37,830 bases of DNA, taken from assembly GCA_043798555.1 (NCBI GenBank), contig JAZDOO010000229.1, forward strand, positions 1-37,830, given 5' to 3'. The position numbers were made by a program, and so were the translations under genes. Under the pieces are notes generated by a model. That model did no database searches and was not told where the DNA came from. It saw nothing but the letters and a program-made list of their open reading frames with translations. Every line of letters starts with the position of its first letter. Within the stretch, counting starts at the first letter, position 1. Of this stretch, positions 1 to 32,192 are shown one piece after another. Source of the DNA: Pseudomonadota bacterium. Its GTDB lineage: Bacteria; Desulfobacterota; WTBG01; JAGOGO01.

Positions 1-458
1 CAAACTGAGGTGTACGCTAAAGCCCCGGCCGCAGCTTTTGCCACCAATTGGTTTGCCGGGGCGGAACGATGCTTGGGAACGATGATTCCATGCACACCCA
101 CGGTATTGGCGGTTCGCACAATGGCCCCGAAGTTCCGCGGATCTTCGATGCCGTCCAAAATTAAAAAAAGGGCCTTTTCTTGCGATGTTCGCCAGTGCTC
201 GAGCAGAGATTCGAAACGCTGATAGGAATATGGTGAAACGATTCCTACTACCCCCTGATGGGCTTCTTTGCCCACTAATGTATCAAATCTATTTCGAGGG
301 ATACGCTGAATCTTGATGTTGTGCTGTCGGGCGAGAGCATAAATCTCACTTTTTTTCCCCTTAAGGTTCTCAATGGGCAGGAAAATCTGGTGAACCCGCT
401 CTGGATGGGATTTAATCGTTTCAAGAACCGTATTTATGCCAAAAATAGTTTCCTCCAT
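1..458 (-). CDS. rlmB: 23S rRNA (Gm2251) 2'-O-methyltransferase, TrmH/SpoU family; 3' end runs off the window
   Basis: Not in the ORF track. Manual translation from ATG at 458 gives MEETIFGINTVLE...HQGVVG...FLILDGIEDPRNFGAIVRTA...KAAAGA, with typical RlmB motifs. The frame stays open to the window edge. Confidence 0.9.
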   Translation of the reverse strand, partial: MEETIFGINTVLETIKSHPERVHQIFLPIENLKGKKSEIYALARQHNIKIQRIPRNRFDTLVGKEAHQGVVGIVSPYSYQRFESLLEHWRTSQEKALFLILDGIEDPRNFGAIVRTANTVGVHGIIVPKHRSAPANQLVAKAAAGALAYTSV

Positions 459-471
459 GGTGAAAGCGAGA

Positions 472-1206
472 TTATGCTATGGCCTGTGCCATGTCTTCTA
501 AAATCGTATGAACCGCCTCGACAGGATTTGGAGCTTTAAGGATAGGACGTCCGATGACTATGTAGTCAGCTCCTGCTTGTAACGCCATTTTAGGAGTGAG
601 AACCCGTTTCTGATCGTCTTTGTTAGAAGTATGGATCCTCACTCCCGGGGTAACAGTCAAAAAGTCACGGGGGAGGATATCCCGAATAAAAGGGATTTCC
701 TGGGGAGAAGCTACCACCCCATTGAGGCCAGCCTCGTATGCAAGACAGGCAAGGCGCTGAACCTGGGCAGTAACAGGAGCGGTAATGCCCATTTCTGCTA
801 AATCAGAATCCAGAAGGCTGGTGAGAATGGTTACTGCTAATAAGATGGGAGTTGGGGAGTGAAGTTTATCAGCTGTAGCTCGGGCCGATTTAACTGCCTC
901 TGCCATCATAGTCCTCCCGCCGAGGGCATGAACATTGAGCATCTTTACTTTTAGAGAGACCGCTGCTTCGATAGCTGCGGTTACGGTATTTGGTATGTCA
1001 TGAAATTTTAAATCGAGAAATACTTCTCCTCCTTCATCCTGAACCATTCTTACCGCGGAAGACCCGTAGCGAGTAAAAAGCTGAAGCCCCACTTTGAAAA
1101 GCCCCACATAAGACTTCAGTTCCTTTACCCAGAATTGCGCCTCGGAAAGGCTGTCCACGTCCAATGCCACAATAAGCTTTTTTTTAACTTCTTCTTTTGA
1201 TAACAC
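472..1206 (-). CDS. pyrF: Orotidine-5'-phosphate decarboxylase
   Basis: LIVALD, FKVG, FLDLKFHDIPNT (DxKxxDIxNT), VTPGVR, DDQKR, VIGRPI. Confidence 0.97.
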   Translation of the reverse strand: MLSKEEVKKKLIVALDVDSLSEAQFWVKELKSYVGLFKVGLQLFTRYGSSAVRMVQDEGGEVFLDLKFHDIPNTVTAAIEAAVSLKVKMLNVHALGGRTMMAEAVKSARATADKLHSPTPILLAVTILTSLLDSDLAEMGITAPVTAQVQRLACLAYEAGLNGVVASPQEIPFIRDILPRDFLTVTPGVRIHTSNKDDQKRVLTPKMALQAGADYIVIGRPILKAPNPVEAVHTILEDMAQAIA

Positions 1207-1232
1207 AGGAAAATATGATTAGGTGAAAAGGG

Positions 1233-1850
1233 TTAGTATTTTAAAAAATCATTTAAAATGGGTAGGCGTTTTAACATGTGTTCACGACGATGCCTTTCAG
1301 AGATGATGATTGCTTGGAGAACCCTGAGGGTTTCAGCAAAGGAGTCGTTAACAACTATATAATCATACGTATTCGCTTGAGAAATCTCCTCCTGGGCCCT
1401 ACTGAGACGGTTTTTTATTATCTCTGGAGAATCAGTGTTTCTTTCCTGCAATCTCCGTTCAAGTTCAGCAAGCGATGGGGGGAGCACAAAAATGGATATC
1501 CCCTGGGGGTAATTTTTTTTTAGTTGCTTGGCCCCCTGAGCATCTATATTAAAAAGAAGATCGTGACCCTTTGCAAGCGTTTGTTCAATGACTGATCGGG
1601 CAGTCCCGTAAAAATGCCCATAAATTTCAGCCCACTCCGCCAATTCTCCTTTATTGATCATAGCCCTGAACGTCTCTGAAGATACGAAAAGGTAATCTTG
1701 GCCATGTATTTCATCCTTACGAGGAGGGCGGGTAGTGTACGACACTGATAATTGTAATTTGGGAATCTGTCTTACCAATTCTCTACCGAGAGAAGTCTTT
1801 CCTGTTCCTGAGGGACCAGAAATGATAAACAAAAGACCGCTTCTTCCCAT
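1233..1850 (-). CDS. gmk: Guanylate kinase
   Basis: P-loop SGPSGTGKT, SVSYTTRPPR, YGHFYGT. Confidence 0.97.
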   Translation of the reverse strand: MGRSGLLFIISGPSGTGKTSLGRELVRQIPKLQLSVSYTTRPPRKDEIHGQDYLFVSSETFRAMINKGELAEWAEIYGHFYGTARSVIEQTLAKGHDLLFNIDAQGAKQLKKNYPQGISIFVLPPSLAELERRLQERNTDSPEIIKNRLSRAQEEISQANTYDYIVVNDSFAETLRVLQAIIISERHRREHMLKRLPILNDFLKY

Positions 1851-2125
1851 TATCCCTCCTTCCCCTCTCCTCCCTTGGGTTGATACTCCGTTAATAGACG
1901 GTTGGCAACCGTACTCGCTTCAACTGCTGAGAGTACTATATGATCACTGTCAGTGATAATAATAGAACGGGTTTTTCTCCCCTGCGTCACATCTATGAGT
2001 TTCCGGGATTCCCTCGCCTCTTCTTTGAGGCGCTTTATGGGAGCTGATCCGGGAGTGATTATGGCAACCACTCGCGATGCCATGAGCATATTTCCAAAAC
2101 CAACATTTAACAGTTTTATATCCAT
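1850..2125 (-). CDS. DUF370 / RemA (YlzA) family protein
   Basis: LLNVGFGN...GSAPIKRL...[24 protein letters not shown]; typical yicC-DUF370-gmk order. Start chosen at ATG 2125 behind a GGAGG RBS; the ORF track starts at 2143. Confidence 0.92.
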
Positions 2126-2142
2126 GCCTTTTCCTCCATACA

Positions 2143-3015
2143 CTATTCTACATTTTGAACCTGTTCGCGCATCTTTTCTACATCACTTTTTACTTCCACA
2201 ACGGCTTGAGAGATTCTGACGTCGTTTGATTTCGAACCAATGGTATTGATTTCACGATTTATTTCTTGGATGATAAACTCGAGCTTACGGCCAATAGCAA
2301 TTGGCGAGTCAAGTAACTCTTGACATTGCTGAAGGTGACTTCTAATCCGAACAACTTCTTCAGTTATGTCGGCTCGTTCCGCGAGAAAAAAAATTTCGGT
2401 CAAGAGGCGAGATTCATCTATTTTATAAGGGAGATCGAGTTGTTGAAACCGTTTGAGCAGTTTTTCTCGATAGGAGGTAGTCATTTGGGAGCCATGCGAT
2501 TCGATTTCAGAAATAAGGTGATCAATCCTTTGGACTCTTTCCTGAAGGTCTTGCTTGATAAAAGTCCCTTCACATTCCCTCATTTCATTCAGGGCATTTA
2601 AGGCTGAATCTAAAAGGATTTGCAATTCATCCCACCTTTGAAAATCTGCTTCAATTTTTTCAACCGAGATAACATCTTTCAAGGAAATAATATGTAATAA
2701 CGAAATGCCTTCAGCTAAGTCGAGCTCTTGCTTGAGTTGACTTAGAAGGCTATAATATTCGTGAGCCAAAGGGAGATTTAATCCAACATGAAATTTCACC
2801 CCCTCCCCATTCTCCATTTGAATAGTAGCATCAACTCTCCCTCGGTTTATTTTCCGCTCCATGTACTTTTTTATCGTTAGTTCCAGCGGAACCAGCACCT
2901 TGGGAATTTTAAGATTAATGTCACAAAAGCGGTGGTTAACCGTTTTAATTTCTATTACACAGGGGCGAGTATCAAATAATCCTTCGACTCTGGCATAGCC
3001 GGTCATACTTCTCAT
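2143..3015 (-). CDS. yicC: YicC/YloC family endoribonuclease
   Basis: [45 protein letters not shown]-terminal [11 protein letters not shown]. Confidence 0.95.
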
Positions 3016-3578
3016 ACTGAACTAATCCCTATATGGTTAAATTCCGAACGCCCCCTTTTTAACTGGAAAAGATATTTTTGACGAAGGACATTCATGAGGT
3101 CAATCATCTTCCCCGATCGGTAATCAGGATATGTCCAGGGAAGAGCCCGAAAGCTTTTTTCCTGGTAAATCAACGTTATGTCAGCGTGGATACCGTTTTG
3201 TAAATACGGACGGTGGGGGCAGGGTTTGGTGGTTGCTAAAATAAGATGATGGGCACTAATATACCCAGGATCGATATTAACCGTTCGCTTGTTAGGTCCC
3301 GAGGAAAAAGTGGTTTCAATTTCATTGGTTACGTGCTTCAAGTCAGAAAGTCTCTCCGGGTTAATTAAAGGTTCAAAGCTTATCATTCTTCGCCAGAGGT
3401 TTTGCCCCATTTCCTTCTCATAGTAATCAGTATAATTAAAAGGCATTACTTCACTGATAAAATCGAGGGAGCCCCAAAGGGAAACCATTTTCTTTAAAGC
3501 AAGATGAAACGAATCTTCCTTTCTCCAGATTAGGCTCGCAATCAATTTTACTGGTTTAGGATAGGTTGGATTTCCCAC
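3012..3578 (-). CDS. DUF4416 family protein
   Basis: FNYTDYYEKEMG, RTVNIDPGY, LILATTK..HRPYL, LPWTYPDY; 4-bp overlap with yicC. Confidence 0.85.
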   Translation of the reverse strand: MGNPTYPKPVKLIASLIWRKEDSFHLALKKMVSLWGSLDFISEVMPFNYTDYYEKEMGQNLWRRMISFEPLINPERLSDLKHVTNEIETTFSSGPNKRTVNIDPGYISAHHLILATTKPCPHRPYLQNGIHADITLIYQEKSFRALPWTYPDYRSGKMIDLMNVLRQKYLFQLKRGRSEFNHIGISSV

Positions 3579-3631
3579 AAGAAAAAGTAACAGTTAAAAT
3601 TGAGCTTCCCGATAATAGAGGAAAAACTACC

Positions 3632-4420
3632 CTAAGTCAAGGATGCATCTCCCAGAGAGGAATTTCTGGTGCTGGTCAAATTTTGGTAAAAAATCTTTTG
3701 AATTTTTTCCTGAAGAAATTTCTTATCCCTGAGGGTTAATGATTCGGTTTCAACGGGGGGATCCACGAAAACCTTTACATAACCAGGCAATACCCGCACG
3801 GACCCTTTGGGCATTATTGTATGGGTTCCGTTAATCGTAATGGGTAGAATAGGCGCCCGGGAAAGAATGGCTAAAAAAAATCCTCCCTCAGTGAAAGGAA
3901 GAAGATCGCCGGTGGGGCTTCGGGTCCCTTCCGGGAAAACGAGGACGCTTGCTCCTTTTTTAATCCTTTCAATCGTTTTTCTAATACTGGAAGAGGCCTT
4001 GGATTTATTCTCTCGGTCAATGCTGATGGCACCGATCCAGTGCAAGATCCAGCCAAAAACTGGAATTTTAAACAGTTCTTTTTTCGCCATCCAATGGATA
4101 AAAATGGGCAGGGTAAGGAGGACAAAAATATCATGATAGCTCTGGTGATTAGCCATAATGATATAGGTTTGGCCAGAACGGATATTATCAATTCCCTCGA
4201 CTTCTACCTGCACGCCGCTAACCAATAAGAGAAGACGAGCCCAATATTTCTGGATTTGAAGGATCTTTTTTTCCTGTGACCTAAAAACGAAAATAGCTGG
4301 ACAAATAATGATAGTGTTCACGATGATCGTGATCCAAAACAGGATCGTTCTTATTACAGCAGCCGCTTGCTTCAAATAAGTAAGTATTTTTAAGATATTA
4401 ATAAACTGAGAGCGGACCAA
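3632..4420 (-). CDS. plsC: 1-acyl-sn-glycerol-3-phosphate acyltransferase
   Basis: NHQSYHD (HxxxxD), AKKELFKIPVFGW, FPEGTRS; hydrophobic N-terminus. Exact start uncertain. Confidence 0.9.
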   Translation of the reverse strand: MVRSQFINILKILTYLKQAAAVIRTILFWITIIVNTIIICPAIFVFRSQEKKILQIQKYWARLLLLVSGVQVEVEGIDNIRSGQTYIIMANHQSYHDIFVLLTLPIFIHWMAKKELFKIPVFGWILHWIGAISIDRENKSKASSSIRKTIERIKKGASVLVFPEGTRSPTGDLLPFTEGGFFLAILSRAPILPITINGTHTIMPKGSVRVLPGYVKVFVDPPVETESLTLRDKKFLQEKIQKIFYQNLTSTRNSSLGDASLT

Positions 4421-16790: not shown

Positions 16791-17069
16791 GACCCACGCG
16801 AAAAGATGGTCAGAAGACATCACTTAAGCCCCCGATCCATTCAGAAAGCAATGGCTGACGCAGTAAAAAAGTCCGGTATCCCCAAAAGGGCAAATGTCCA
16901 TACGCTCCGTCACAGCTTTGCCACTCATCTTTTACAGGATGGATATGATATCCGTACTGTTCAGGAACTGCTTGGACACAAAAGTGTACAGACAACAATG
17001 GTCTATACTCATACCCTGGAAAGTTTGCGAGGAGGGGTTGTCAGTCCGCTGGAAAATCTTCAGTTATAG
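16791..17069 (+). pseudogene. intI: 3' remnant of an integron-type tyrosine recombinase
   Basis: [11 protein letters not shown] (IntI-specific patch), [38 protein letters not shown]. Only about 92 codons remain; the N-terminal two thirds, including the first catalytic Arg, are missing. Confidence 0.85.
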
Positions 17070-17159
17070 AGAGGTAGCGGCGGCTCTTTCGGGTGATAAA
17101 TTGCAATGGGTAACCACGGGGGTTAACGCGAAATTCCCATGGTAATTTGGGTAATAGGG

Positions 17160-18104
17160 ATGAGACAAACAAAGGCTCTGGTAGGAATCATAATTCTTTT
17201 GATGGCCATTTCGCTTCCCGTTGGGGGAAGCGAAGGCGGGAGGTCTACCTCACTGTCTAATTTGGTACCCCTTAAGATCCAAGGCTGGAAGGCAAAAGGA
17301 AAAGATGCGATTTACAACCGGCAAACCATTTACGACTACATGGACGGGGCAGGTGAGATTTATTGTTGGTATGGCTTTCAGGAATTGTTGGTGCGCTGGT
17401 TTGCCAAAGCAGACCAGCCGGATATTGTCCTGGAAATGTTTGACATGGGTTCATCAGAGGATGCCTTTGGGGTCCTCTCTCATGGACGAGAGGGTCAAGG
17501 TGAAGAGGTATGTATTGGACAGTATTCCGAATATAATGGGGGCCAGTTGGTTTTTTGGCAAGGGAGGTTCTATATCAACATCTATGCCATGCGAGAGACC
17601 CCATTGGCCAAGAAGGCCGTGCTTGATCTGGGCAAAACCGTATCCATGGCCATCAGAGTTAATGGAGAAAAACCAAGGTTGATCAGCTACTTACCCACCC
17701 AGGGGTTGATGGAAAAATCCATTCGGTATTTCCATAATCATTTATCCCTGAACCGCTATTACTTTGTGGGGGATGAAAACATTCTTCACCTCGATAATCA
17801 GACCAAAGCGGTTCTGGCCAGATACCACCATAATGGAAGTGAAACCTACCTTCTTTTGGTACAGTACCAAACTCCAAAAAGGGCAAAGGCAGCTTTTGAA
17901 AGTTTCTTAGGTGCCTCTACGCCGGAAGCAAAACAAACAGGTATCATTCAGCTCAAAAACGGCCGATGGTCAGCGGCTAAGATGGAAAATGCTTTTGTTA
18001 TCGCTGTCTTTGATGCACCAACCATGGATGATGCGGAGGCTCTTATGAAAGTGGCCATGGAAAAATTAGAGGGCAAATATTCTAACTCCAAACCCCGGCG
18101 ATGA
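17160..18104 (+). CDS. Secreted protein, DUF6599-like
   Basis: Signal-like N-terminus MRQTKALVGIIILLMAISLPVGG; IYDYMDGAGEIY..YGF, EMFDMGSSEDAFG, FWQGRFYI. The ORF track starts at 17139; the family name is recalled, not searched. Confidence 0.7.
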   Translation: MRQTKALVGIIILLMAISLPVGGSEGGRSTSLSNLVPLKIQGWKAKGKDAIYNRQTIYDYMDGAGEIYCWYGFQELLVRWFAKADQPDIVLEMFDMGSSEDAFGVLSHGREGQGEEVCIGQYSEYNGGQLVFWQGRFYINIYAMRETPLAKKAVLDLGKTVSMAIRVNGEKPRLISYLPTQGLMEKSIRYFHNHLSLNRYYFVGDENILHLDNQTKAVLARYHHNGSETYLLLVQYQTPKRAKAAFESFLGASTPEAKQTGIIQLKNGRWSAAKMENAFVIAVFDAPTMDDAEALMKVAMEKLEGKYSNSKPRR

Positions 18105-19233
18105 TATGCTTGCAGAATTTACATTTCCCGTCTTCTATGTTCTTTTCCAGAATTTCAAATCCTATTCTTCCGACAACCACCTTGCCACAATTGGGGCAAT
18201 AGGTACTCTCTCCCTTATGACCGTAAACATTACCAATATACACATACTTCAGTCCCGCTTCCATGGCAATATTTCGAGCTTTCTCCAAACTCGTTACCGG
18301 GGTAGGGGGGAGGTTCTTGATCTTATACATCGGGGAAAATCGGGTAAAATGGACCGGCACCTCAGTCCCCAGATGACCCTTGATCCACAGGGACATCTCC
18401 CTGATCTCTTTCTCGTCGTCGTTTAAGGTAGGGATGATTAAAACCACGATCTCGTACCAGATCCCGATTTTCTTCAAGGTCTCAAGGGCGTGCAAGACAG
18501 GTGCTAACTCTCCCGAGCAGGTCTCCTTATAGAATTTCTCCGTAAACGCCTTCAAGTCCACCTTAACCGCACTCAAATGCTTGCAGAGGTCAACGAGGGG
18601 CTCTTCAGCGATGTATCCGTTGGATATCATGACGCTTCCAACCCCCTCTTTCTTAGCCAACTGCGCTGTATCATACATGTAGGTGTAGAAAACAACCGGT
18701 TCCGAATAGGTATAGGCTATTGTGGGGGCCTTGTATCCTTTAGCTAACCGGACGATCTCTTCCGGGGACAAGTCGTAACTTTCCACCTGTTCAGGTCGAA
18801 ATTGAGATATCCTCCAGTTCTGGCAAAATCTGCACTCAATATTGCACCCGGCGGTGGCAAGCGAAAGTGCCGTTGTGCCAGGCAGGTAATGAAACAAGGG
18901 TTTTTTTTCGATGGGATCCACATGGAGAACACAGGGCCTTGAATAGACTAACTCATAATATTTCCCCTCCCTATTCTCTTTGTTCCCACAGTAACCCCTT
19001 TCCAAATCTGCTACACTGCACTTTCTCGGACAAATTTCGCACTGAATCTTAAGGTTTTCCAATTTCTTGTAATACATGGACTCCTTCAACGGAAGCTCAT
19101 CCGAACGAGCCTCCGATTCACCCATCAACTTCAAAATTTCGCTTTGCCCAAAGCTTTCAGAAGCAATGCTGGTAAAGCAAAGAGTCCCGGTGACCGCCTT
19201 GAAAAATTCCCTTCTCGAACAGGAAAAACCCAT
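18082..19233 (-). CDS. AmmeMemoRadiSam-type radical SAM enzyme (PflA-like) with a Tat-like leader
   Basis: DPIEKKPLFH, GCNIECRFCQNW (CxxxCxxC), AYTYSEP, VDLKAF, PVHFTRF, YVYIGNV, TYCPNC; N-terminal SRREFFK. Confidence 0.92.
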   Translation of the reverse strand: MGFSCSRREFFKAVTGTLCFTSIASESFGQSEILKLMGESEARSDELPLKESMYYKKLENLKIQCEICPRKCSVADLERGYCGNKENREGKYYELVYSRPCVLHVDPIEKKPLFHYLPGTTALSLATAGCNIECRFCQNWRISQFRPEQVESYDLSPEEIVRLAKGYKAPTIAYTYSEPVVFYTYMYDTAQLAKKEGVGSVMISNGYIAEEPLVDLCKHLSAVKVDLKAFTEKFYKETCSGELAPVLHALETLKKIGIWYEIVVLIIPTLNDDEKEIREMSLWIKGHLGTEVPVHFTRFSPMYKIKNLPPTPVTSLEKARNIAMEAGLKYVYIGNVYGHKGESTYCPNCGKVVVGRIGFEILEKNIEDGKCKFCKHIIAGVWS

Positions 19234-19247
19234 GGCCTTCCCCCATC

Positions 19248-20129
19248 CTAAAGTTCTAATACCTTAATCTTCGTTAAATCGTCCATACCCAACCCCTTCT
19301 TTGCTGCAGTTGCTATATGTTTTGGAGGCCTCTTCGCTTCCTCCAAAGAGGGGAGTCCATTTTCTTTTCGCTTTGTTTCAATAATGTTAGCCCCAACGCT
19401 ATCCGCGGCAACCGGATCAAAACTCATGATCAGCCCGGAAAAGTTCCATCGCCAGCGGGGCTTATAGCTTGGCCCTCCGTTGTATTGGGCTTCAATGCCA
19501 TCGCATACCACCAGCCTCAATTTATCCTTAATGAACGGGTGGGTATTCAAATCAGCAATGTAAGGGTCACAGTTATTATCGTGGTATTTATTGGGGTTGT
19601 GGATTGCGCCGTAGAAATTTTTCAAGCTCAACGTTACTCCGGCCAAATCGTGGTCCTTCAATACCGGAACATTTATCAAAGCAGTACAATGGGTGGATAA
19701 GATCCGGCTAAAGCAGCTTCCGATAGACTCCTGTATCTCGGGCTCTTCGTCGTAACCAACCACCTCTGTCCCGAAACATTTCACCCCGCTGCCCCTCACA
19801 TTTATTATAAAACCCGCCCTCGTCAGATCGCTGCTGGTCCGATCCCAAATAATGATCTTCTCATCAGGCACATCTGCCAATCTTAGACCCTCGACAATGG
19901 CATTCACCAGATCTGGATGCGTTGACATCATCTGTCCCGAGAGACCATTGACCTTTATCCCCACCACATCGTTTGGACTGAAGAGACTTCTCCATGCCAG
20001 AGAGGCGGAGTTCTTACCCGTCAACACTATCAATCCTTTATGGATCGCCTGAACAGTCACTTGCTTATTAACTCGTCCACCGGGGGTAAGGATGTTTGGA
20101 TTACGCGTTAGAATAACCTTCGATTCCAT
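19248..20129 (-). CDS. DUF362 domain protein (no signal peptide)
   Basis: DVVGIKVN, IIIWDR, INVPVLKDHDLAGVTLSLKN, DPVAAD, GLG. Confidence 0.88.
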   Translation of the reverse strand: MESKVILTRNPNILTPGGRVNKQVTVQAIHKGLIVLTGKNSASLAWRSLFSPNDVVGIKVNGLSGQMMSTHPDLVNAIVEGLRLADVPDEKIIIWDRTSSDLTRAGFIINVRGSGVKCFGTEVVGYDEEPEIQESIGSCFSRILSTHCTALINVPVLKDHDLAGVTLSLKNFYGAIHNPNKYHDNNCDPYIADLNTHPFIKDKLRLVVCDGIEAQYNGGPSYKPRWRWNFSGLIMSFDPVAADSVGANIIETKRKENGLPSLEEAKRPPKHIATAAKKGLGMDDLTKIKVLEL

Positions 20130-20205
20130 ACTAAAAAATCTTTACCTTAAAGAAGAGCTGTTCTCCGAACAAAAACTTAAGGGGACCTCTAATAGTTCCC
20201 AATCT

Positions 20206-20274
20206 GTCACTCCCGCGAAGGTGGGAGTCCAGTAATTTCAATTGGTTATGGATTCCTGCTTTCGCAGGAATGAC
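20206..20274. repeat. REP/dRS3-like palindromic dimer (GTCA...TGAC type)
   Basis: GTCACTCCCGCGAAGGTGGGAGTCCA-17 bp-TGGATTCCTGCTTTCGCAGGAATGAC. Confidence 0.85.
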
Positions 20275-20336
20275 ATTTTTAGAGCCAGCCTTAATCGCAA
20301 GTTAACAAAACCCGTCAATTTAGTAGAATAATTAAA

Positions 20337-20364
20337 ATAATATTTCGGTTTTGAAAGATGTCAA
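20337..20364 (-). promoter_or_regulatory. Putative sigma70 promoter for the DUF362-radical SAM pair
   Basis: Minus strand TTGACA-16 bp-TATTAT. Confidence 0.45.
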
Positions 20365-20593
20365 CCAAATTCTTGCTGATTGCAAATTCTTGCTGAGGGA
20401 AAAGTTTAGTAATTTGAAGTTTTAAGATCTTTTAGGGGGTTAATAAAGATCGCTGAACTTTTATTCTAAATTCACATGGTAATTTTTGGGAAAACAGGGT
20501 AAATTAAAAAATATTAACTATGCGATACCATATAACCTCTTTGGCGAATCCCGAGGCGGCTGCGGGGCTGGCCACATTTAAAGGAAACCCTCC

Positions 20594-20776
20594 ATGGCGG
20601 TAACCCTGGAAGATATTCGCCATCACCGTACCTTTACCACTGTTCCTTTGCAGTCAGCAGAAGTTGAGTTCGTTCTCCAGACCCGGGGGATTGACCATGT
20701 AAACCAGGTTATCGACGGGTTAACTCATGCCGGATATAAAGTTCACTTACCTGACAGAACACCCGGTAATCCTTAA
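20594..20776 (+). pseudogene. ilvA: Threonine ammonia-lyase remnant with an in-frame internal deletion
   Basis: MAVTLEDIR (typical IlvA start) joined to HHRTFTTVPLQSAEVEFVLQTRGIDHVNQVIDGLTHAGY (end of the ACT domain); AAGGA RBS retained. Confidence 0.7.
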
Positions 20777-20836
20777 AACTATTACCTTTAAACCCAATAA
20801 CCGTCATCATGAACATCATGCCTGAGGCGGTTTTAC

Positions 20837-21739
20837 ATGAACCGGAGAGACTTTTTAAAATCAGCGCTCATTGCCAGCGTGGGGGCCACACTTTCAAATA
20901 GCATTGGTCTGCTCATCAAAACCCCGTTGGCTTCGGAAAAAGTTGACCTGGTGGTGGCCCAGGGGACTTCTCCTGCAACGATCACCGCCTCAGCAATTGA
21001 GGCCCTGGGGGGAATGAGAAGCTTCATATCCAGGGGAGACATTGTCGTGGTCAAGCCAAACATAGGGTGGGATCGAACCCCAGAACAGGCGGCCAACACC
21101 AATCCCGAGGTCGTTTCCACTGTGGTAAGACTATCTTACGAAGCGGGGGCTAAAAAGGTAAAGGTCTTTGACCGAACGGTAAATGATGCAAGAAGGTGTT
21201 ATAAACAAAGCGGAATTGCTGATGCAGCAAAAGCCGCTGGTGCGGAAGTGAGTTTTATTGATGACAGGAAATTCAAGACTGTCACCTTAGAAGGTCTTGC
21301 CCTTAAAGAATGGCCTCTTTATACAGATATTCTTGAGGCCGATAAGGTCATCAATGTTCCTATCGCCAAAACCCACGGGCTGGCAACCCTCACCATGGCC
21401 TTGAAGAACTGGATGGGGATAATGGGTGGAAGGAGGGGCATAATTCACCAGCGGCTGGATGAGAGCCTCGTTGACATTGCCACGGTAATTAAACCAACTC
21501 TTACCATACTGGATGCCATTCGCATTTTGACCGCAAATGGTCCACAAGGAGGTAATCTTAGGGATGTAAAGAAGCTCAATACGGTCATTGTGAGTACTGA
21601 TCAGGTGGCGGTTGATGCTTTTGGAGCTACCCTCTTTGGCTTACAGGGGAGTGATCTCGGGTATGTAAGCATTGCCGACCGCATGGGCCTCGGTACCATG
21701 GATCTCTCCAAGGTAAAGATTAAGGGGATCAGGTGCTAA
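20837..21739 (+). CDS. DUF362 domain protein with Tat signal peptide
   Basis: MNRRDFLK plus hydrophobic stretch; VVVKPNIGWDR, AANTNP, INVPIAKTH, MALKNWMG, DQVAVD. Confidence 0.92.
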   Translation: MNRRDFLKSALIASVGATLSNSIGLLIKTPLASEKVDLVVAQGTSPATITASAIEALGGMRSFISRGDIVVVKPNIGWDRTPEQAANTNPEVVSTVVRLSYEAGAKKVKVFDRTVNDARRCYKQSGIADAAKAAGAEVSFIDDRKFKTVTLEGLALKEWPLYTDILEADKVINVPIAKTHGLATLTMALKNWMGIMGGRRGIIHQRLDESLVDIATVIKPTLTILDAIRILTANGPQGGNLRDVKKLNTVIVSTDQVAVDAFGATLFGLQGSDLGYVSIADRMGLGTMDLSKVKIKGIRC

Positions 21740-21801
21740 TCTTAATTGATCGGGAAGACATAAAGAGAGCATTGGCGAGATCCGGAAATATTAAATAGTT
21801 T

Positions 21802-23346
21802 ATGCGAATCTACCGAAAAATTAGTCAAGGACTATTTTTACTCACCTTCTTGTTTCTCTTTTTGCAGACAGAGTCAAAAGGAGGAGATGAGCTGGGGTAC
21901 CCAGTGAAAATTTTTCTTGATTTTGACCCTCTGCTCTTTATCTCCACCTTGCTTTCTTCTCATGCCGTTAGTAAAGGTTTTTATTTCTCTTTCACCTTAC
22001 TTATTGCCACCATCATTCTGGGGAGGGTCTTTTGCGGCTGGGTCTGTCCCTTGGGAACCTTAAATAATCTGGTCAGTTCCCTGAAAAAAGTCCGACCCCC
22101 CGCCGCTCACCTAAACTGGCACAAAGTAAAATATTATATCTTCATCTTCCTCCTTGCAGCCTCGCTTTTCACGCTTCAACTTACAGGCATCCTGGACCCC
22201 CTTTCTTTCCTTACCCGATCCCTTTCTTTAAGTATTTATCCCGTTTTCAACTACGTTATCAGGGCAATCTTTGATACTATCTACAATATCAACCCCCATT
22301 TTATCGTTAACCTGTCGGAGTTCTTGTATACTATAGTAAAGAAGTCCCTCCTCTCTTTTCAGCAGCCTTTTTTCCAACAGGCTCTGTTCCTTGGTTTTTT
22401 ATTCCTTTTAATCCTTGGTCTCAACCTGGTGGAAAAAAGGTTTTGGTGTAAATACCTCTGTCCCCTCGGTGCCCTTCTTGGAATCCTTTCCCGCTATGCA
22501 TTCCTCAAAAGATCCGTAAGCGAGGGATGTGATTCCTGCGGCGCATGTAACCTGGCCTGTCAAGGCGATGCTGCCCCCGACAGCAAGGAAAACTGGAAGA
22601 ACACTGAGTGTCTTTACTGTATGAACTGCGATGACCTGTGCCCTCATAATGCAGTTAGTTTCGGATTTATCAAAAAAAGGGCGGCCGCCTCAATGGATTT
22701 GGGAAGAAGAAAGGTGATTGCATCCATCACTACCGGCGTGCTTGCTGTCCCCTTTTTTAGAATAACTCCCTTGTCACGATCAAGCAGCCTGAATCCAAAC
22801 CTCATTAGACCTCCGGGATCGCTTGAAGAAAAGGAGTTTTTGAAAAAATGTGTGAGATGCGGAGAGTGCATGAAGGTATGCATCACCAATGGGCTGCAAC
22901 CGACCTTTCTTGATGCCGGCCTCGAAGGGATATGGTCTCCCGTGTTGGCTCCGAGGATAGGACACTGTGAATACCGCTGTACCCTCTGTGGCCAGGTCTG
23001 TCCCACTGGTGCGATCGAGAAATTGGAACTGGAAGATAAGCAAAAGATTAAGATCGGGCTCGCCATGATTGACAGAGGGAGATGCCTCCCCTATGCCCAT
23101 GCCACCCCCTGCCTCGTATGTGAAGAAGTATGCCCTACGCCCAAGAAGGCTATATGGCTGGAGCCGGCAACGGGCAAGAACAGGAAAGGGAAAGAGATAA
23201 TTTTGAAACAGCCCAAGGTGGATCTTGACCTCTGTATTGGCTGCGGCATCTGTGAGGCAAAATGCCCGGTTATTGGTGAGCCGGCAATTTATGTAATCAA
23301 TACCGGTGAATCGAGATCGAAAGAAAATCAGCTCCTGTTACTATAA
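21802..23346 (+). CDS. Membrane polyferredoxin, NapH/MauN-like fused to NapG/MauM-like domain
   Basis: Several TM helices, two CxxxCP motifs (FCGWVCP, WCKYLCP), six four-Cys ferredoxin-type motifs, internal GRRKV plus hydrophobic stretch, IRPPG. Confidence 0.9.
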   Translation: MRIYRKISQGLFLLTFLFLFLQTESKGGDELGYPVKIFLDFDPLLFISTLLSSHAVSKGFYFSFTLLIATIILGRVFCGWVCPLGTLNNLVSSLKKVRPPAAHLNWHKVKYYIFIFLLAASLFTLQLTGILDPLSFLTRSLSLSIYPVFNYVIRAIFDTIYNINPHFIVNLSEFLYTIVKKSLLSFQQPFFQQALFLGFLFLLILGLNLVEKRFWCKYLCPLGALLGILSRYAFLKRSVSEGCDSCGACNLACQGDAAPDSKENWKNTECLYCMNCDDLCPHNAVSFGFIKKRAAASMDLGRRKVIASITTGVLAVPFFRITPLSRSSSLNPNLIRPPGSLEEKEFLKKCVRCGECMKVCITNGLQPTFLDAGLEGIWSPVLAPRIGHCEYRCTLCGQVCPTGAIEKLELEDKQKIKIGLAMIDRGRCLPYAHATPCLVCEEVCPTPKKAIWLEPATGKNRKGKEIILKQPKVDLDLCIGCGICEAKCPVIGEPAIYVINTGESRSKENQLLLL

Positions 23347-23402: not shown

Positions 23403-23528
23403 AAGGAGCCAAATCGAGAATCATCCCCCTCGAATTTACGGACAAACGGCTTTAGTGTTCACTCGCAGTCTGGTTTGGACCTTAGACAACGGGCAATAAA
23501 CTCCTATACGAAAGAGGGCATAAACGTT

Positions 23529-24521
23529 ATGGAAACAAACAGCATATCTTCATTCGTTAAACATCATTTTCGGCACTTCAATGCCGCTGCACTGGTTGAT
23601 GCAGCAGAAGGGTATTGTAAGCTTATAGACGCAGGAGGTCATATGCTGGTGACCATTGCAGGCGCCATGAGCACCGCCGAAATCGGCCTCTCTCTGGCGG
23701 AAATGATTCGCCGAGGCAAAGTCCACGCCATCAGTTGCACTGGCGCCAATCTCGAAGAAGATATTTTTAATTTAGTAGCTCATAATCACTATGTTCGTAT
23801 CCCTCACTATCGGCAGCTCACCCCCTTAGATGAGCAGCAGCTTTTGGCCCGCCATCTCAATCGCGTTACCGACACTTGCATCCCCGAGGAAGAAGCCATC
23901 CGGCGGATTGAAAGCGCAATTCTGGATGAATGGGAACATGCTGATAAAAAAGGGGGCCGGTATTTCCCGCACGAGTTTTGTTACCAACTGATCCGGAGCA
24001 AGCGTCTTTCACCTTATTACCAAGTTGATCTGAAAAATAGTTGGGTGGTGGCAGCATGTGAGAACAATCTCCCTATGTTTGTTCCTGGGTGGGAGGATTC
24101 TACCCTCGGTAATATTTATGCCTCCCATTGCCTCCATGGAACCATTCGGAATGTGCACACCGTGCGGAGCGGGATCGAGTATATGATGGAGTTAGCAGAA
24201 TGGTATAAAAGTACCTTCCAAAAACATCCTATAGGATTTTTCCAGATTGGCGGTGGTATTGCCGGTGACTTTCCCATTTGTGTTGTGCCCATGTTACGGC
24301 AGGATTTGAAGATGGAAGACGTTCGATTATGGAGCTACTTCTGTCAAATCAGTGACTCCACGACGAGCTATGGTTCTTATTCTGGAGCAGTACCGAACGA
24401 GAAGATTACTTGGGAAAAATTGGGGGTAGATACTCCCAGGTATATTATCGAATCAGATGCCACGATTGTAGCCCCTCTCATTTTTGCCTATGTGTTAGAA
24501 ACGTCAATTTCAAACTCGTAA
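23529..24521 (+). CDS. Deoxyhypusine synthase-like protein
   Basis: FRHFNAAAL, AGAMSTAE, CTGANLEED, PGWEDST, IGGGIAGDF, SYSGAVPNEKITW.K, IESDATIVAP. ATG 23529 follows a GAGGG RBS; the ORF track starts at 23475. Confidence 0.93.
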   Translation: METNSISSFVKHHFRHFNAAALVDAAEGYCKLIDAGGHMLVTIAGAMSTAEIGLSLAEMIRRGKVHAISCTGANLEEDIFNLVAHNHYVRIPHYRQLTPLDEQQLLARHLNRVTDTCIPEEEAIRRIESAILDEWEHADKKGGRYFPHEFCYQLIRSKRLSPYYQVDLKNSWVVAACENNLPMFVPGWEDSTLGNIYASHCLHGTIRNVHTVRSGIEYMMELAEWYKSTFQKHPIGFFQIGGGIAGDFPICVVPMLRQDLKMEDVRLWSYFCQISDSTTSYGSYSGAVPNEKITWEKLGVDTPRYIIESDATIVAPLIFAYVLETSISNS

Positions 24522-30299: not shown

Positions 30300-32192
30300 C
30301 TATTTATCCTTTGCACAACGAAACCCAATGCTATTAAACTGACTTGTGGGATTCATCTTTTTTCTTTCCCCGCATCGGGAGGTAAAAGCCATGTTGCTCC
30401 ACGATCCTCCCCGCACAACTTTATTTACGCCTTGATCTGGACCTCGAGTGTTCTGGGATGGATTGAGCTCGTCATCATAAGAGGAGTACCCGTCAGCACA
30501 CCATTCCCAGACGTTTCCCGCCATATCATAAAGGCCATACTGATTCGGTGGATAGCTTCCTACTGGCCGAGTACCGTTTGCTCCTCCTTCCCAGCTATTT
30601 AACCGTTCAGGGTCCATTTCATCTCCCCAGGGCCATAACTTGTCTACCAGTCCTCCTCGGGCTGCCTTCTCCCACTCAGCCTCGGTGGGAAGCCTTTTCC
30701 CAATCCAACGTGCATACGTCTGAGCGTCTTCCCAACTCACTAAAACTACTGGGTGATCTCCCTTTCCCGGAGGGTACGTGTTATTTATCCAATTGTATTC
30801 TTTTGCCCATTCTTCATCTACAAAAGGCCCCATATGGCCCGTAGCATCGACAAATTTCTTGTATTCTTTATTGGTAACCTCATGTTTGTCAATATAAAAA
30901 GCTTTTAGATAAACGTTGTGGGCGGGTTGTTCGTCTGCTAACCAGCCACCTTTGCTATCCGGAAATATTTCTAAAATCCGCTCCACTGATTCCTTCGATG
31001 TACCCATAATAAACTCCCCTTCGGGGATTAAGGTCATATCCTTAGGAACGCGGGAAATGCTTATTACATCATGTTTATAAGCAAACAGACCAATCCCCAA
31101 AAGAACTACCACCAATGAAGCTATTGCTACTGATTTCCAGGGAAATGCTCTCCTCGTCTCATGTCTGGAAATACCAGGAACATATTTTGGGGTAATAGGT
31201 TTACCCCTTTTCTTCTCTTTAGGGGTAACTCCCTGGGCCTCTTCAAACCGCCTGAATCTTTCTGTCTCTGAAGGTATATGAGCAATCAATTCCGCTTCTG
31301 TGGCAATAAACATGCTGGTCCGTTTTTCCAACAACTCCCTTATTTCTCCGGCTGTCTGCCATCGTTCTTCGGGTCGCTTAGCCAGCATTTTCATTACCAA
31401 TCTTTCCAGCCGTTCAGGAGCTTTTGGGCAAAGGTCACGCAAAGCAGCAGGGGTATCCTTAAGGTGTTTAAGAAGCGTTGCCATGGGCGTGTCCCCGAAA
31501 AAAGGCACTTTCCCCGTTAACATTTCGTAGAGTACAATTCCCAAAGAATAAATATCTGACTGCGGCCCAATCGAGCGACCCTCGGCCTGCTCAGGAGACA
31601 TGTATTCGGGGGTTCCTATAATCAATCCAGAGGTAGTGACCCCAGCTTCTCCTGAAACGATTTTGGCAATTCCAAAATCGGCAACTTTGACAGAAAAATT
31701 CGGAGAATCACCCGTTATGACTGCCGGGATGAGCATTATGTTACCGGGTTTAATGTCCCTATGAATTACTCCCTGGCGATGAGCTTCTTCTAAAGCCCGC
31801 AGAATCTGAATTGCAATATCAACGGTCTGAGGAATGGGAAGAACACCGTGTTTTTTTATCAAAGTTTTCAGCGTAATTCCGTCAACCCACTCCATGGTGA
31901 TAAATTTCCGGTCTTCTCCCCAGTAGAGATCAAACATTCCCACAATGTTAGGGTTACGAAGTTTACGGGTAGTCTTAGTCTCTAATTTAAACCGCTGAAG
32001 GCTCTGGGGGTCCATCTGAAGTTCAGGCCGAAGAATCTTAATGGCTATAGTGTCGTTTAATTCTTGGTCGTACGCCTTGTAGACCCCCCCCATTCCTCCC
32101 ATACCTATCAGCGCAAGGATTCGATAACGATTAGCAACAACGGTACCTTCAATTTTAGGCAGGATGGGATCTTGAAAAGAAGTTTCTTCCAT
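30300..32192 (-). CDS. Hanks-type Ser/Thr kinase - TM - FGE-sulfatase (SUMF1) domain fusion
   Basis: IGMGGMGGVY, AIK, HRDIKPGN, DFG, GTPEYMSPE; one TM helix; then GEFIMG, RLPTEAEWEKAARGG, YDMAGNVWEW, RGGSW, GFRC. Confidence 0.93.
   Translation of the reverse strand: MEETSFQDPILPKIEGTVVANRYRILALIGMGGMGGVYKAYDQELNDTIAIKILRPELQMDPQSLQRFKLETKTTRKLRNPNIVGMFDLYWGEDRKFITMEWVDGITLKTLIKKHGVLPIPQTVDIAIQILRALEEAHRQGVIHRDIKPGNIMLIPAVITGDSPNFSVKVADFGIAKIVSGEAGVTTSGLIIGTPEYMSPEQAEGRSIGPQSDIYSLGIVLYEMLTGKVPFFGDTPMATLLKHLKDTPAALRDLCPKAPERLERLVMKMLAKRPEERWQTAGEIRELLEKRTSMFIATEAELIAHIPSETERFRRFEEAQGVTPKEKKRGKPITPKYVPGISRHETRRAFPWKSVAIASLVVVLLGIGLFAYKHDVISISRVPKDMTLIPEGEFIMGTSKESVERILEIFPDSKGGWLADEQPAHNVYLKAFYIDKHEVTNKEYKKFVDATGHMGPFVDEEWAKEYNWINNTYPPGKGDHPVVLVSWEDAQTYARWIGKRLPTEAEWEKAARGGLVDKLWPWGDEMDPERLNSWEGGANGTRPVGSYPPNQYGLYDMAGNVWEWCADGYSSYDDELNPSQNTRGPDQGVNKVVRGGSWSNMAFTSRCGERKKMNPTSQFNSIGFRCAKDK

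Follow-up and report, generated by a model that had tools for sequence, protein, structure and literature searches.

The five clustered genes at positions 17160 to 23346 of contig JAZDOO010000229.1, from a bacterium of the Desulfobacterota (assembly GCA_043798555.1), raise the question of whether they form a single iron-sulfur system working outside the cytoplasm or several systems that have come to lie side by side. The window that we analyzed is the whole 37,830-nucleotide stretch of this contig, and the genes, here called A to E in their order along it, encode a DUF6599 protein (A), a radical S-adenosylmethionine (SAM) enzyme of the AmmeMemoRadiSam type (B), two DUF362 proteins (C and D) and a membrane polyferredoxin (E). 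An initial annotation, made from the letters alone, had read them as one undescribed redox or cofactor-maturation module in which the polyferredoxin supplies electrons to periplasmic DUF362, to the radical SAM enzyme or to both. Its observations are confirmed here, and its interpretation is partly supported. The explanation that we judge best, with about an even chance of being right, is that two separately inherited, export-tagged redox modules, D-E and C-B, were brought together with the accessory gene A by rearrangement. The most likely reading of the products is a periplasm-facing DUF362-polyferredoxin oxidoreductase (D-E), a DUF362 form of an exported AmmeMemoRadiSam system (C-B) and an exported PsbP-like accessory protein (A).

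All five open reading frames (ORFs) are confirmed by the ORF list of the window, and the profile scores of A to D lie above the cut-offs of the families first proposed for them. A (17160..18104, forward strand, with an alternative ATG at 17139) scores 115.2 bits against PF20244 (gathering threshold 27); B (18082..19233, reverse strand) scores 372.7 bits against TIGR04337 (cut-off 220) and thus belongs to that family; and C (19248..20129, reverse strand) and D (20837..21739, forward strand) score 86.3 and 189 bits against PF04015 (gathering threshold 24). E (21802..23346, forward strand, 514 residues) joins a NapH-like membrane part to a NapG-like domain, as read from Fer4_5, its Cys motifs and its helices, and its Nap- and Mau-like matches fall below the cut-offs. 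Export signals are found on four of the five products, as first noted: a hydrophobic N-terminus on A, the twin-arginine motifs SRREFFK on B and NRRDFLK on D, and an internal GRRK in E; C has none. The C-B and D-E units diverge around 20130-20836, with 14 bases between C and the gene B that follows it on the same strand, and A, which runs toward B, overlaps it by 23 bases.

The pairing of D with E carries the first module. A DUF362 gene of the D type, with a leader for twin-arginine translocation (Tat), stands directly upstream of E in 18 of 20 loci from genomes of the same class, the stop and start codons often overlapping, and a D-type gene holds that position in 43 of the 55 metagenome loci where the contig extends 1 kb or more upstream of E; in most of the other 12, D lies within a few kb of E. 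An [RK]R motif occurs in the first 70 residues of 52 of 59 D-type ORFs beside E, and three of the seven without it are cut or truncated. When genes within 5 kb of E were clustered over 100 loci, D was present in 68 and DUF6599 in 10, and the other recurrent families resembled lineage synteny. We also co-folded D (residues 36-300) with the periplasmic domain of E (residues 322-514) and four 4Fe-4S clusters, which gave a docking score of 0.44 against 0.00 for the best control, with at least 91% of contacts agreeing between runs and a partner predicted local distance difference test (pLDDT) value of at least 92. Among 80 solved complexes 58 reach the docking mark, as do 2 of 110 mismatched pairs; with a score of 0.60 or less, 7 of these complexes and both mismatches do so. 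The docking tool grades the result as weak support for D docking on E. A polyferredoxin serving a periplasmic DUF362 protein, one half of the electron route first proposed, fits this near-obligate and often overlapping gene pair; delivery to the radical SAM enzyme, the other half, rests on occasional co-location (in L018, L019, L020, L229 and the window).

The architecture of E is not new. The available excerpts of Tooke et al. (2017, eLife, PMC5449189) describe the polyferredoxin "PFD" (Q1NSB0) of delta proteobacterium MLMS-1 as a NapH-NapG fusion inserted by the Sec and Tat pathways together, with Tat dependence demonstrated by reporter fusions and RR-to-KK changes, so that the class has already been tested; in those excerpts no physiological partner or function is named for PFD. 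The likeness of E to PFD is one of architecture, as that paper describes it: E likewise has five helices, CX3CP motifs, cytoplasmic clusters and four periplasmic 4Fe-4S motifs, and in E too the twin-arginine pair directly precedes a weakly hydrophobic fifth helix that is followed by positive charge. Its 28 Cys residues comprise two CX3CP pairs, two cytoplasmic CX2CX2CX3C motifs and 16 residues after helix 5, which makes seven clusters in total; at the domain level E has Fer4_5 and four further 4Fe-4S motifs. The GRRK motif (codons 302-303; 22705..22770, forward strand, for motif and helix together) stands directly before helix 5 (residues 305-323), which has a hydropathy of 1.48 compared with 2.0-2.2 for helices 2-4 and is followed by Arg; all 16 sequences compared keep the second Arg of the motif. 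E differs from the split NapH/NapG quinol dehydrogenase in falling below the NCBIfam cut-offs for NapG (111.9 vs 269), NapH (90.7 vs 213), MauM (85.2 vs 179) and MauN (84.5 vs 234) and in lacking NapA, NapB and Mau genes beside it; as first noted, no Nap or Mau catalytic subunit occurs among the 27 window ORFs scanned, a set that omits five smaller or edge ORFs. What separates E from PFD, as the latter is described in those excerpts, is its near-constant upstream Tat-DUF362 neighbour.

D is a protein without conserved Cys whose predicted structure places it beside the lactate racemase LarA. Its N-terminus reads MNRRDFLK (Pfam TAT_signal 18.9, under the cut-off of 22.7), and R3, R4, K73, P74, N75, D112, D169, K178, H180, K190, R200, H204, D213, D226 and R229 are invariant in 39 orthologues, which were picked for clean starts, making the invariance of R3 and R4 partly a matter of choice. 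The model (pLDDT 93) matches the LarA family in Foldseek with an E-value of 1e-7, the outcome of the structure check suggested with the initial annotation, and in VIA with Z 17.8-18.7 and a root-mean-square deviation of 2.7 A over about 205 residues, the next unrelated match reaching Z 5.5; the match runs over residues 42-270 of the model and 35-269 of 5huq. According to PMC11770544, DUF362 and the LarA N-terminal domain share one Pfam clan, and LarA1 uses R75 for phosphate binding, H108 and H174 for catalysis, K184 as the tether of the cofactor and H200 as nickel ligand. In that clan (CL0471, Lar_N/DUF2088), the D fold covers the part of LarA that holds R75, H174, K184 and H200, and D and LarA have in common an "EADKVI" strand and a His-x9-Lys spacing (H180-x9-K190-x13-H204 in D, H160-x9-K170 in C and H176-x9-K186-x15-H202 in the LarA homologue of the window genome). 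D and C differ from LarA in being about 250 residues long when mature, predicted to be exported and paired with iron-sulfur partners. DUF362 often occurs in proteins with iron-sulfur domains and is also fused to CBM9 and dockerin, which implies occurrence outside the cell (PMC5742341). The Lar_N profile (PF09861) has no match in D, and its sole match in the genome is the LarA homologue on contig C325. The DUF362 model in turn weakly matches that true LarA homologue (C325:2075-2425; 21 bits, E 4e-4), a minor but independent hint that the two belong to one clan. When A, C and D were searched against the PDB by sequence, nothing useful was returned, and an hhalign comparison of the D profile with one LarA sequence, which aligned only 22 columns, was set aside.

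From the structure model, D may be a small LarA-like enzyme carrying a tethered cofactor, and a cofactor loaded in the cytoplasm could explain why a protein with no iron-sulfur motifs uses Tat for export. The window genome encodes LarC, two LarE proteins and a true LarA. In the class as a whole, 36 of 41 genomes have LarC; in families f4 and f6, whose 20 genomes gave no LarA at E 1e-30, 18 have it. This pattern of LarC without LarA is consistent with D as a cofactor client but not decisive. A partial DUF362 gene and a LarE gene also lie on contig C240, separated by ABC-transporter genes. In the first module as we picture it, E would be inserted by Sec and Tat, leaving the NapH-like half in the membrane with its clusters on the cytoplasmic side and the NapG-like half, with four 4Fe-4S clusters, facing the periplasm. 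D, the putative catalytic partner, would fold in the cytoplasm and probably be loaded there with a cofactor, possibly a nucleotide of the nickel-pincer type tethered to Lys190; it would then be exported by Tat (the genome has a TatC gene) and dock on the periplasmic domain of E, and the pair would link a periplasmic substrate to the quinone pool.

The second module centers on B, whose enzyme class is regarded as strictly cytoplasmic, radical SAM enzymes needing both SAM and a low-potential reductant. The CX3CX2C motif of B occupies residues 130-137, with C130, C134 and C137 invariant in 31 aligned sequences, and further Cys groups lie at residues 65-82 and 346-374. All Cys motifs are held in common with a second TIGR04337 paralogue of the genome on contig C72, which is leaderless and begins where the core of B begins. 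The leader of B takes up about the first 30 codons (19144..19233, reverse strand), in which SRREFFK precedes a mildly hydrophobic segment that contains one Cys. Of the 120 best homologues, 103 have a twin-arginine motif no further in than residue 45. Shorter gene calls make up 14 of the remaining 17, and in the other 3 the two arginines are followed by a Cys outside the pattern; the invariance of the pair in our alignment of homologues is a product of row choice and adds nothing. Leaders are therefore kept in orthologues of B as they are in those of D and E, in line with the first proposal. In 80 loci centered on related radical SAM genes, drawn from contigs of one genome per species, leader-bearing relatives of B come from many phyla, and a rule-based count gave 28 with RR, 11 with KR, 2 with RK, 10 with a hydrophobic start and 29 with none, a lower bound that misses leaders visible by eye (e.g. 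L014, L066). In our literature search, mentions of AmmeMemoRadiSam looked incidental, judged by title and opening of the abstract, and no account of a periplasmic radical SAM enzyme in such a system was found; PMC10924467 contains nothing on a radical SAM enzyme with a Tat leader.

The regular neighbour of B in its class is C, which adjoins it in 14 of 20 loci from same-class genomes. The loci that lack C number six: four belong to the window's own family, one is from another genome and one is on a contig cut 240 bases upstream. Across the 80 radical SAM loci, a C-type DUF362 gene is directly upstream in 11, from Acidobacteriota, Zixibacteria, KSB1, Eisenbacteria and delta proteobacteria; the strict script counted 9 such adjacencies and the phmmer listing 11, two having been masked by over-long ORF calls. 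Elsewhere the company differs. A Memo-AMMECR1 fusion, often with a signal peptide, lies within 6 kb of the radical SAM gene in 28 of the 80 loci, and in 39 a member of one protein cluster does, mostly a membrane protein of 700-800 residues with a spermidine-synthase-like domain, although the cluster was built by single linkage and also takes in DsbD_2-like and flavin mononucleotide (FMN)-binding/NapH-like proteins. The spermidine-synthase-like (SpeE-like) membrane gene is present in 10 of the 20 class loci; the copy with which contig C8 ends is not followed by a radical SAM remnant. Neither an AMMECR1-like nor a Memo-like gene (TIGR04335 and TIGR04336) is among the scanned ORFs of the window; they occur on contigs C128, C334 and C291, and the fused copy in this genome has no signal. 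B thus resembles the canonical AmmeMemoRadiSam enzymes in its TIGR04337 score, in the Cys motifs common to it and its leaderless paralogue, and in having leader-bearing relatives in other phyla beside Memo-AMMECR1 fusions, and differs in its conserved Tat leader and in having DUF362, not Memo or AMMECR1, as its regular neighbour. The second module would then be a DUF362 form of an exported AmmeMemoRadiSam system, in which the radical SAM enzyme, with its Tat leader, acts on a paralogous DUF362 protein or together with it. Here a leaderless C would have to travel bound to B.

That the leader is on B and not on its conserved partner also suits an alternative in which the chemistry is cytoplasmic, B modifying or loading C or another client inside the cell and the Tat leader serving to export the complex or to tether B at the translocon or membrane. 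This would solve the problem of SAM supply, and the closest solved relative of B is PFL-AE, a protein-activating enzyme (E 1.7e-4). We nevertheless regard it as improbable. Orthologues of C carry RR leaders, in the form of a Tat leader of about 50 residues, and in the class C-B pairs (14/14) C has its own leader where its N-terminus is on the contig (the ORF of L130 was called leaderless, and contig ends cut the N-terminus in L132 and L136), so that piggy-back export is not the general design. The Memo-AMMECR1 partners found elsewhere carry Sec-type signals, which points to separate export and assembly outside.

A, the third part of the locus, begins with a hydrophobic segment (residues 13-31 of the long form), read as a Sec-type signal or anchor, and a hydrophobic N-terminus is present in 11 of 11 aligned relatives. 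Its model (pLDDT 86.9) consists of two similar tandem domains of the PsbP/Mog1/PknH-sensor-like type: in VIA, residues 28-168 match 4esq, the PknH sensor domain, with Z 12.9, and residues 171-308 match TM1622 with Z 10.7 and TiME with Z 10.2, followed by lower matches to TP0453, LpqN and RseB/MucB. Foldseek on the same model was weak (TP0453, E 1.7e-4, TM 0.27), and the wide VIA search was more informative. Each half of A thus resembles known PsbP/Mog1-like extracytoplasmic domains (4esq, TiME 7cu8, LpqN 6e5d and the C-terminal domain of RseB/MucB) with Z 8-13; A differs from them in having no sequence similarity and in its tandem arrangement and Tat-oxidoreductase company, which are specific to DUF6599, and the common fold shows no function. 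In 13 of 20 class loci a DUF6599 gene adjoins a Tat-leader aldo/keto reductase with a 4Fe-4S domain, and in 3 of 20 another DUF362 gene. The reductase (L242-L259, e.g. L255:8585-9784) has about 400 residues, a Tat leader and a C-terminal 4Fe-4S dicluster domain, and its pairing with DUF6599 looks like another exported oxidoreductase pair of undescribed function. Of 80 metagenome loci, 10 have DUF6599 no more than 5 kb from E, and the order A-DUF362-D-E recurs in L167, L203 and L208. DUF6599 is present in 23 of the 41 class genomes and C-type DUF362 in 21, all 21 of which also have DUF6599, and the two DUF6599 genomes without C are 59% and 73% complete; this joint presence is suggestive only, the genomes being kin and not independent. 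No paper on DUF6599 was found in our literature search. A would be exported by Sec and would serve as a scaffold or ligand-binding subunit beside exported iron-sulfur-linked oxidoreductases.

Against the reading of two exported modules stand several points. Every step beyond the gene pair, from export, cofactor and docking to the direction of electron flow and the substrate, is a prediction, and the co-fold of D and E scores at the weak grade. For the LarA-like site, hhalign pairs R80, H180 and K190 of D with R76, H176 and K186 of LarA at a probability of 0.4 and E 0.15, without statistical support at the sequence level; a search of the PDB with the D profile found nothing; the first catalytic His and the C-terminal domain of LarA have no counterpart in D, nor in C; and with a true LarA in the genome, LarC and LarE here need no other client. 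For the radical SAM module, SAM is not known to occur outside the cytoplasm, and in at least 10 of the 80 related genes the N-terminus is simply hydrophobic and Sec-like, which is hard to reconcile with export of a folded iron-sulfur enzyme. The C of the window lacks a leader and starts exactly at the mature domain in an alignment with eight orthologues, with no leader remnant upstream in any frame. As to linkage, E and A lie mostly on contigs other than that of B, or far away, in the 41 class genomes; E is 530 kb from B in the one closed genome (G005); and E occurs without a Tat-type radical SAM gene in 8 genomes and the reverse in 5. The Sec-like relatives of B (L028, L029, L031, L035, L039, L041, L045 and others) are mostly from Omnitrophota, and near them are small membrane proteins of the DsbD_2 type and an FMN-binding/NapH-like fusion.

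The linkage data bear also on the single five-gene module first proposed, which is not supported as such. In that alternative, one integrated chain, E would feed both DUF362 proteins and reduce the cluster of B in a single periplasmic pathway. An exported radical SAM enzyme needs a periplasmic low-potential donor, for which the NapG-like domain of E is the sole candidate nearby, and all five families do occur together in one locus of a distant phylum (L020, Terriglobales: E-A-C-B-Memo/AMMECR1-SpeE-like-D). Subsets are found in L018 (E-A-C-B...D), L019 (E...C-B) and L026 (A-C-B), and the metagenome locus L229 holds D-E-SpeE-like-rSAM-Memo/AMMECR1, its radical SAM enzyme (rSAM) bearing a Tat leader. 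However, in the class genomes the pairs are mostly apart and each also occurs without the other, an E-type gene is present in 3 of the 80 radical SAM loci and a radical SAM gene (E < 1e-60) in 1 of 80 E-centered loci, a quinol-linked module of the NapGH type is not expected to reach the potential of a radical SAM cluster, and the C/D junction looks like a rearrangement scar. We therefore find the integrated chain unlikely. Co-occurrence beyond close relatives holds for the pairs D-E and C-B and not for a fixed five-gene unit: the pairs lie apart in most relatives and recur together in Acidobacteriota and one metagenome locus, from which a functional relation between the modules is plausible but unproven.

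The divergent layout stands as first described, but the 707-base C/D spacer is not a clean shared promoter region, holding a short repeat and a gene remnant. The repeat (20176..20331, no strand assigned; recognized by metagenome contig depth and breaks) has an inverted-repeat core and one copy in the window. Its summed depth is very high in each of the four metagenome and RNA runs, at 125 to 4003 compared with 7-13 beside it in X1 and X4 and 2-3 or none in X6 and X20. Public contigs break in it, with loose ends and some that skip 114 bases. None in the four runs bridges 20331-20336, although the X4 contigs on both sides are equal in depth; the C/D junction thus rests on the source assembly, a further point against our reading. 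The remnant (20594..20776, forward strand) is the 3' end, 60 codons, of a threonine ammonia-lyase (ilvA) gene, matching positions 358-405 of 408 of NF005600 with E 2.3e-9. Between polA and A, an 87-codon ORF (16806-17069, forward strand) corresponds to the C-terminal quarter of an integron-type tyrosine integrase (TIGR02249, 232-315 of 315), and the stretch 16795-17083 is swapped for 198 other letters in one public run.

These scars invite the alternative that the neighbourhood is due to chance, with a DUF6599 gene, a laterally acquired C-B and a resident D-E joined by recombination and no functional tie among them. The repeat and remnant in the spacer, the truncated C, and the integrase fragment directly upstream of A with its swapped stretch all speak for it, as do the 7 other genomes of the window's family, in none of which A or C was found, and the identity of B, which is 55-58% to own-family copies and 60-70% to those of other families. 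It is set against the recurrence of the same families together in unrelated lineages (L018, L019, L020, L026 and L229, and A-DUF362-D-E in the three loci given above) and, as a suggestive point only, against the coincidence of A and C in 21 of 21 genomes of related and thus not independent kin. We rate a purely accidental neighbourhood as quite improbable. On our preferred reading, two modules and one accessory gene have come to lie side by side in the window, A and C-B having probably been acquired laterally. Neither polA, the deoxyhypusine-synthase-like gene downstream of E nor the ilvA remnant lies beside D-E or B in same-family relatives, and the ancestral layout is thus not reconstructable.

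The window comes from a genome (G000) of 412 contigs that is 89.7% complete, and near-identical DNA occurs in groundwater metagenomes, with long pieces that have few differences from two studies. In the RNA library X20, small near-identical pieces fall on E only (21945-22203 and 22433-22611) and next to nothing on A-D; DNA is possible in an RNA library, so no inference on expression is drawn. The upstream flank consists of housekeeping genes (pyrF, gmk, groEL, valS, nadC, coaX and polA), and the downstream flank of a deoxyhypusine-synthase-like gene, a gene for a pyridoxal phosphate-dependent (cysK-like) enzyme and sugar-nucleotide genes. The first of these (23475-24521, forward strand), directly downstream of E, is deoxyhypusine/homospermidine-synthase-like by PF01916 and under all NCBIfam cut-offs; given the spermidine-synthase-like membrane protein near relatives of B, a polyamine theme is conceivable. 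At 30300-32192 (reverse strand) one gene joins a Ser/Thr protein kinase with a formylglycine-generating-enzyme-like (FGE-sulfatase) domain.

The present analysis is the source of the D-E pairing, the LarA-site reading and the DUF6599 links. A bolder extension, which we consider doubtful, would make DUF362 a second, largely exported branch of the enzymes with a nickel-pincer nucleotide or similarly tethered cofactor. Its members would receive the cofactor in the cytoplasm, leave by Tat and be connected with the quinone pool by a dedicated Sec/Tat polyferredoxin, forming a novel class of respiratory oxidoreductases in the periplasm, and one paralogue would be matured or partnered by a radical SAM enzyme active outside the cytoplasm. 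A large radical SAM clade with conserved export leaders questions the strictly cytoplasmic view of these enzymes, and the near-constant DUF362 neighbour gives a testable partner to the polyferredoxin class that has served as a model for Sec/Tat insertion. If true, a LarA-like site would explain the use of Tat by a DUF362 protein without iron-sulfur motifs, and DUF362 would supply a client where nickel-pincer biosynthesis genes occur in the absence of LarA, as they do in many genomes. For DUF362, a large family with no assigned function, the conserved export-tagged pairs suggest redox chemistry outside the cytoplasm that has not been described.

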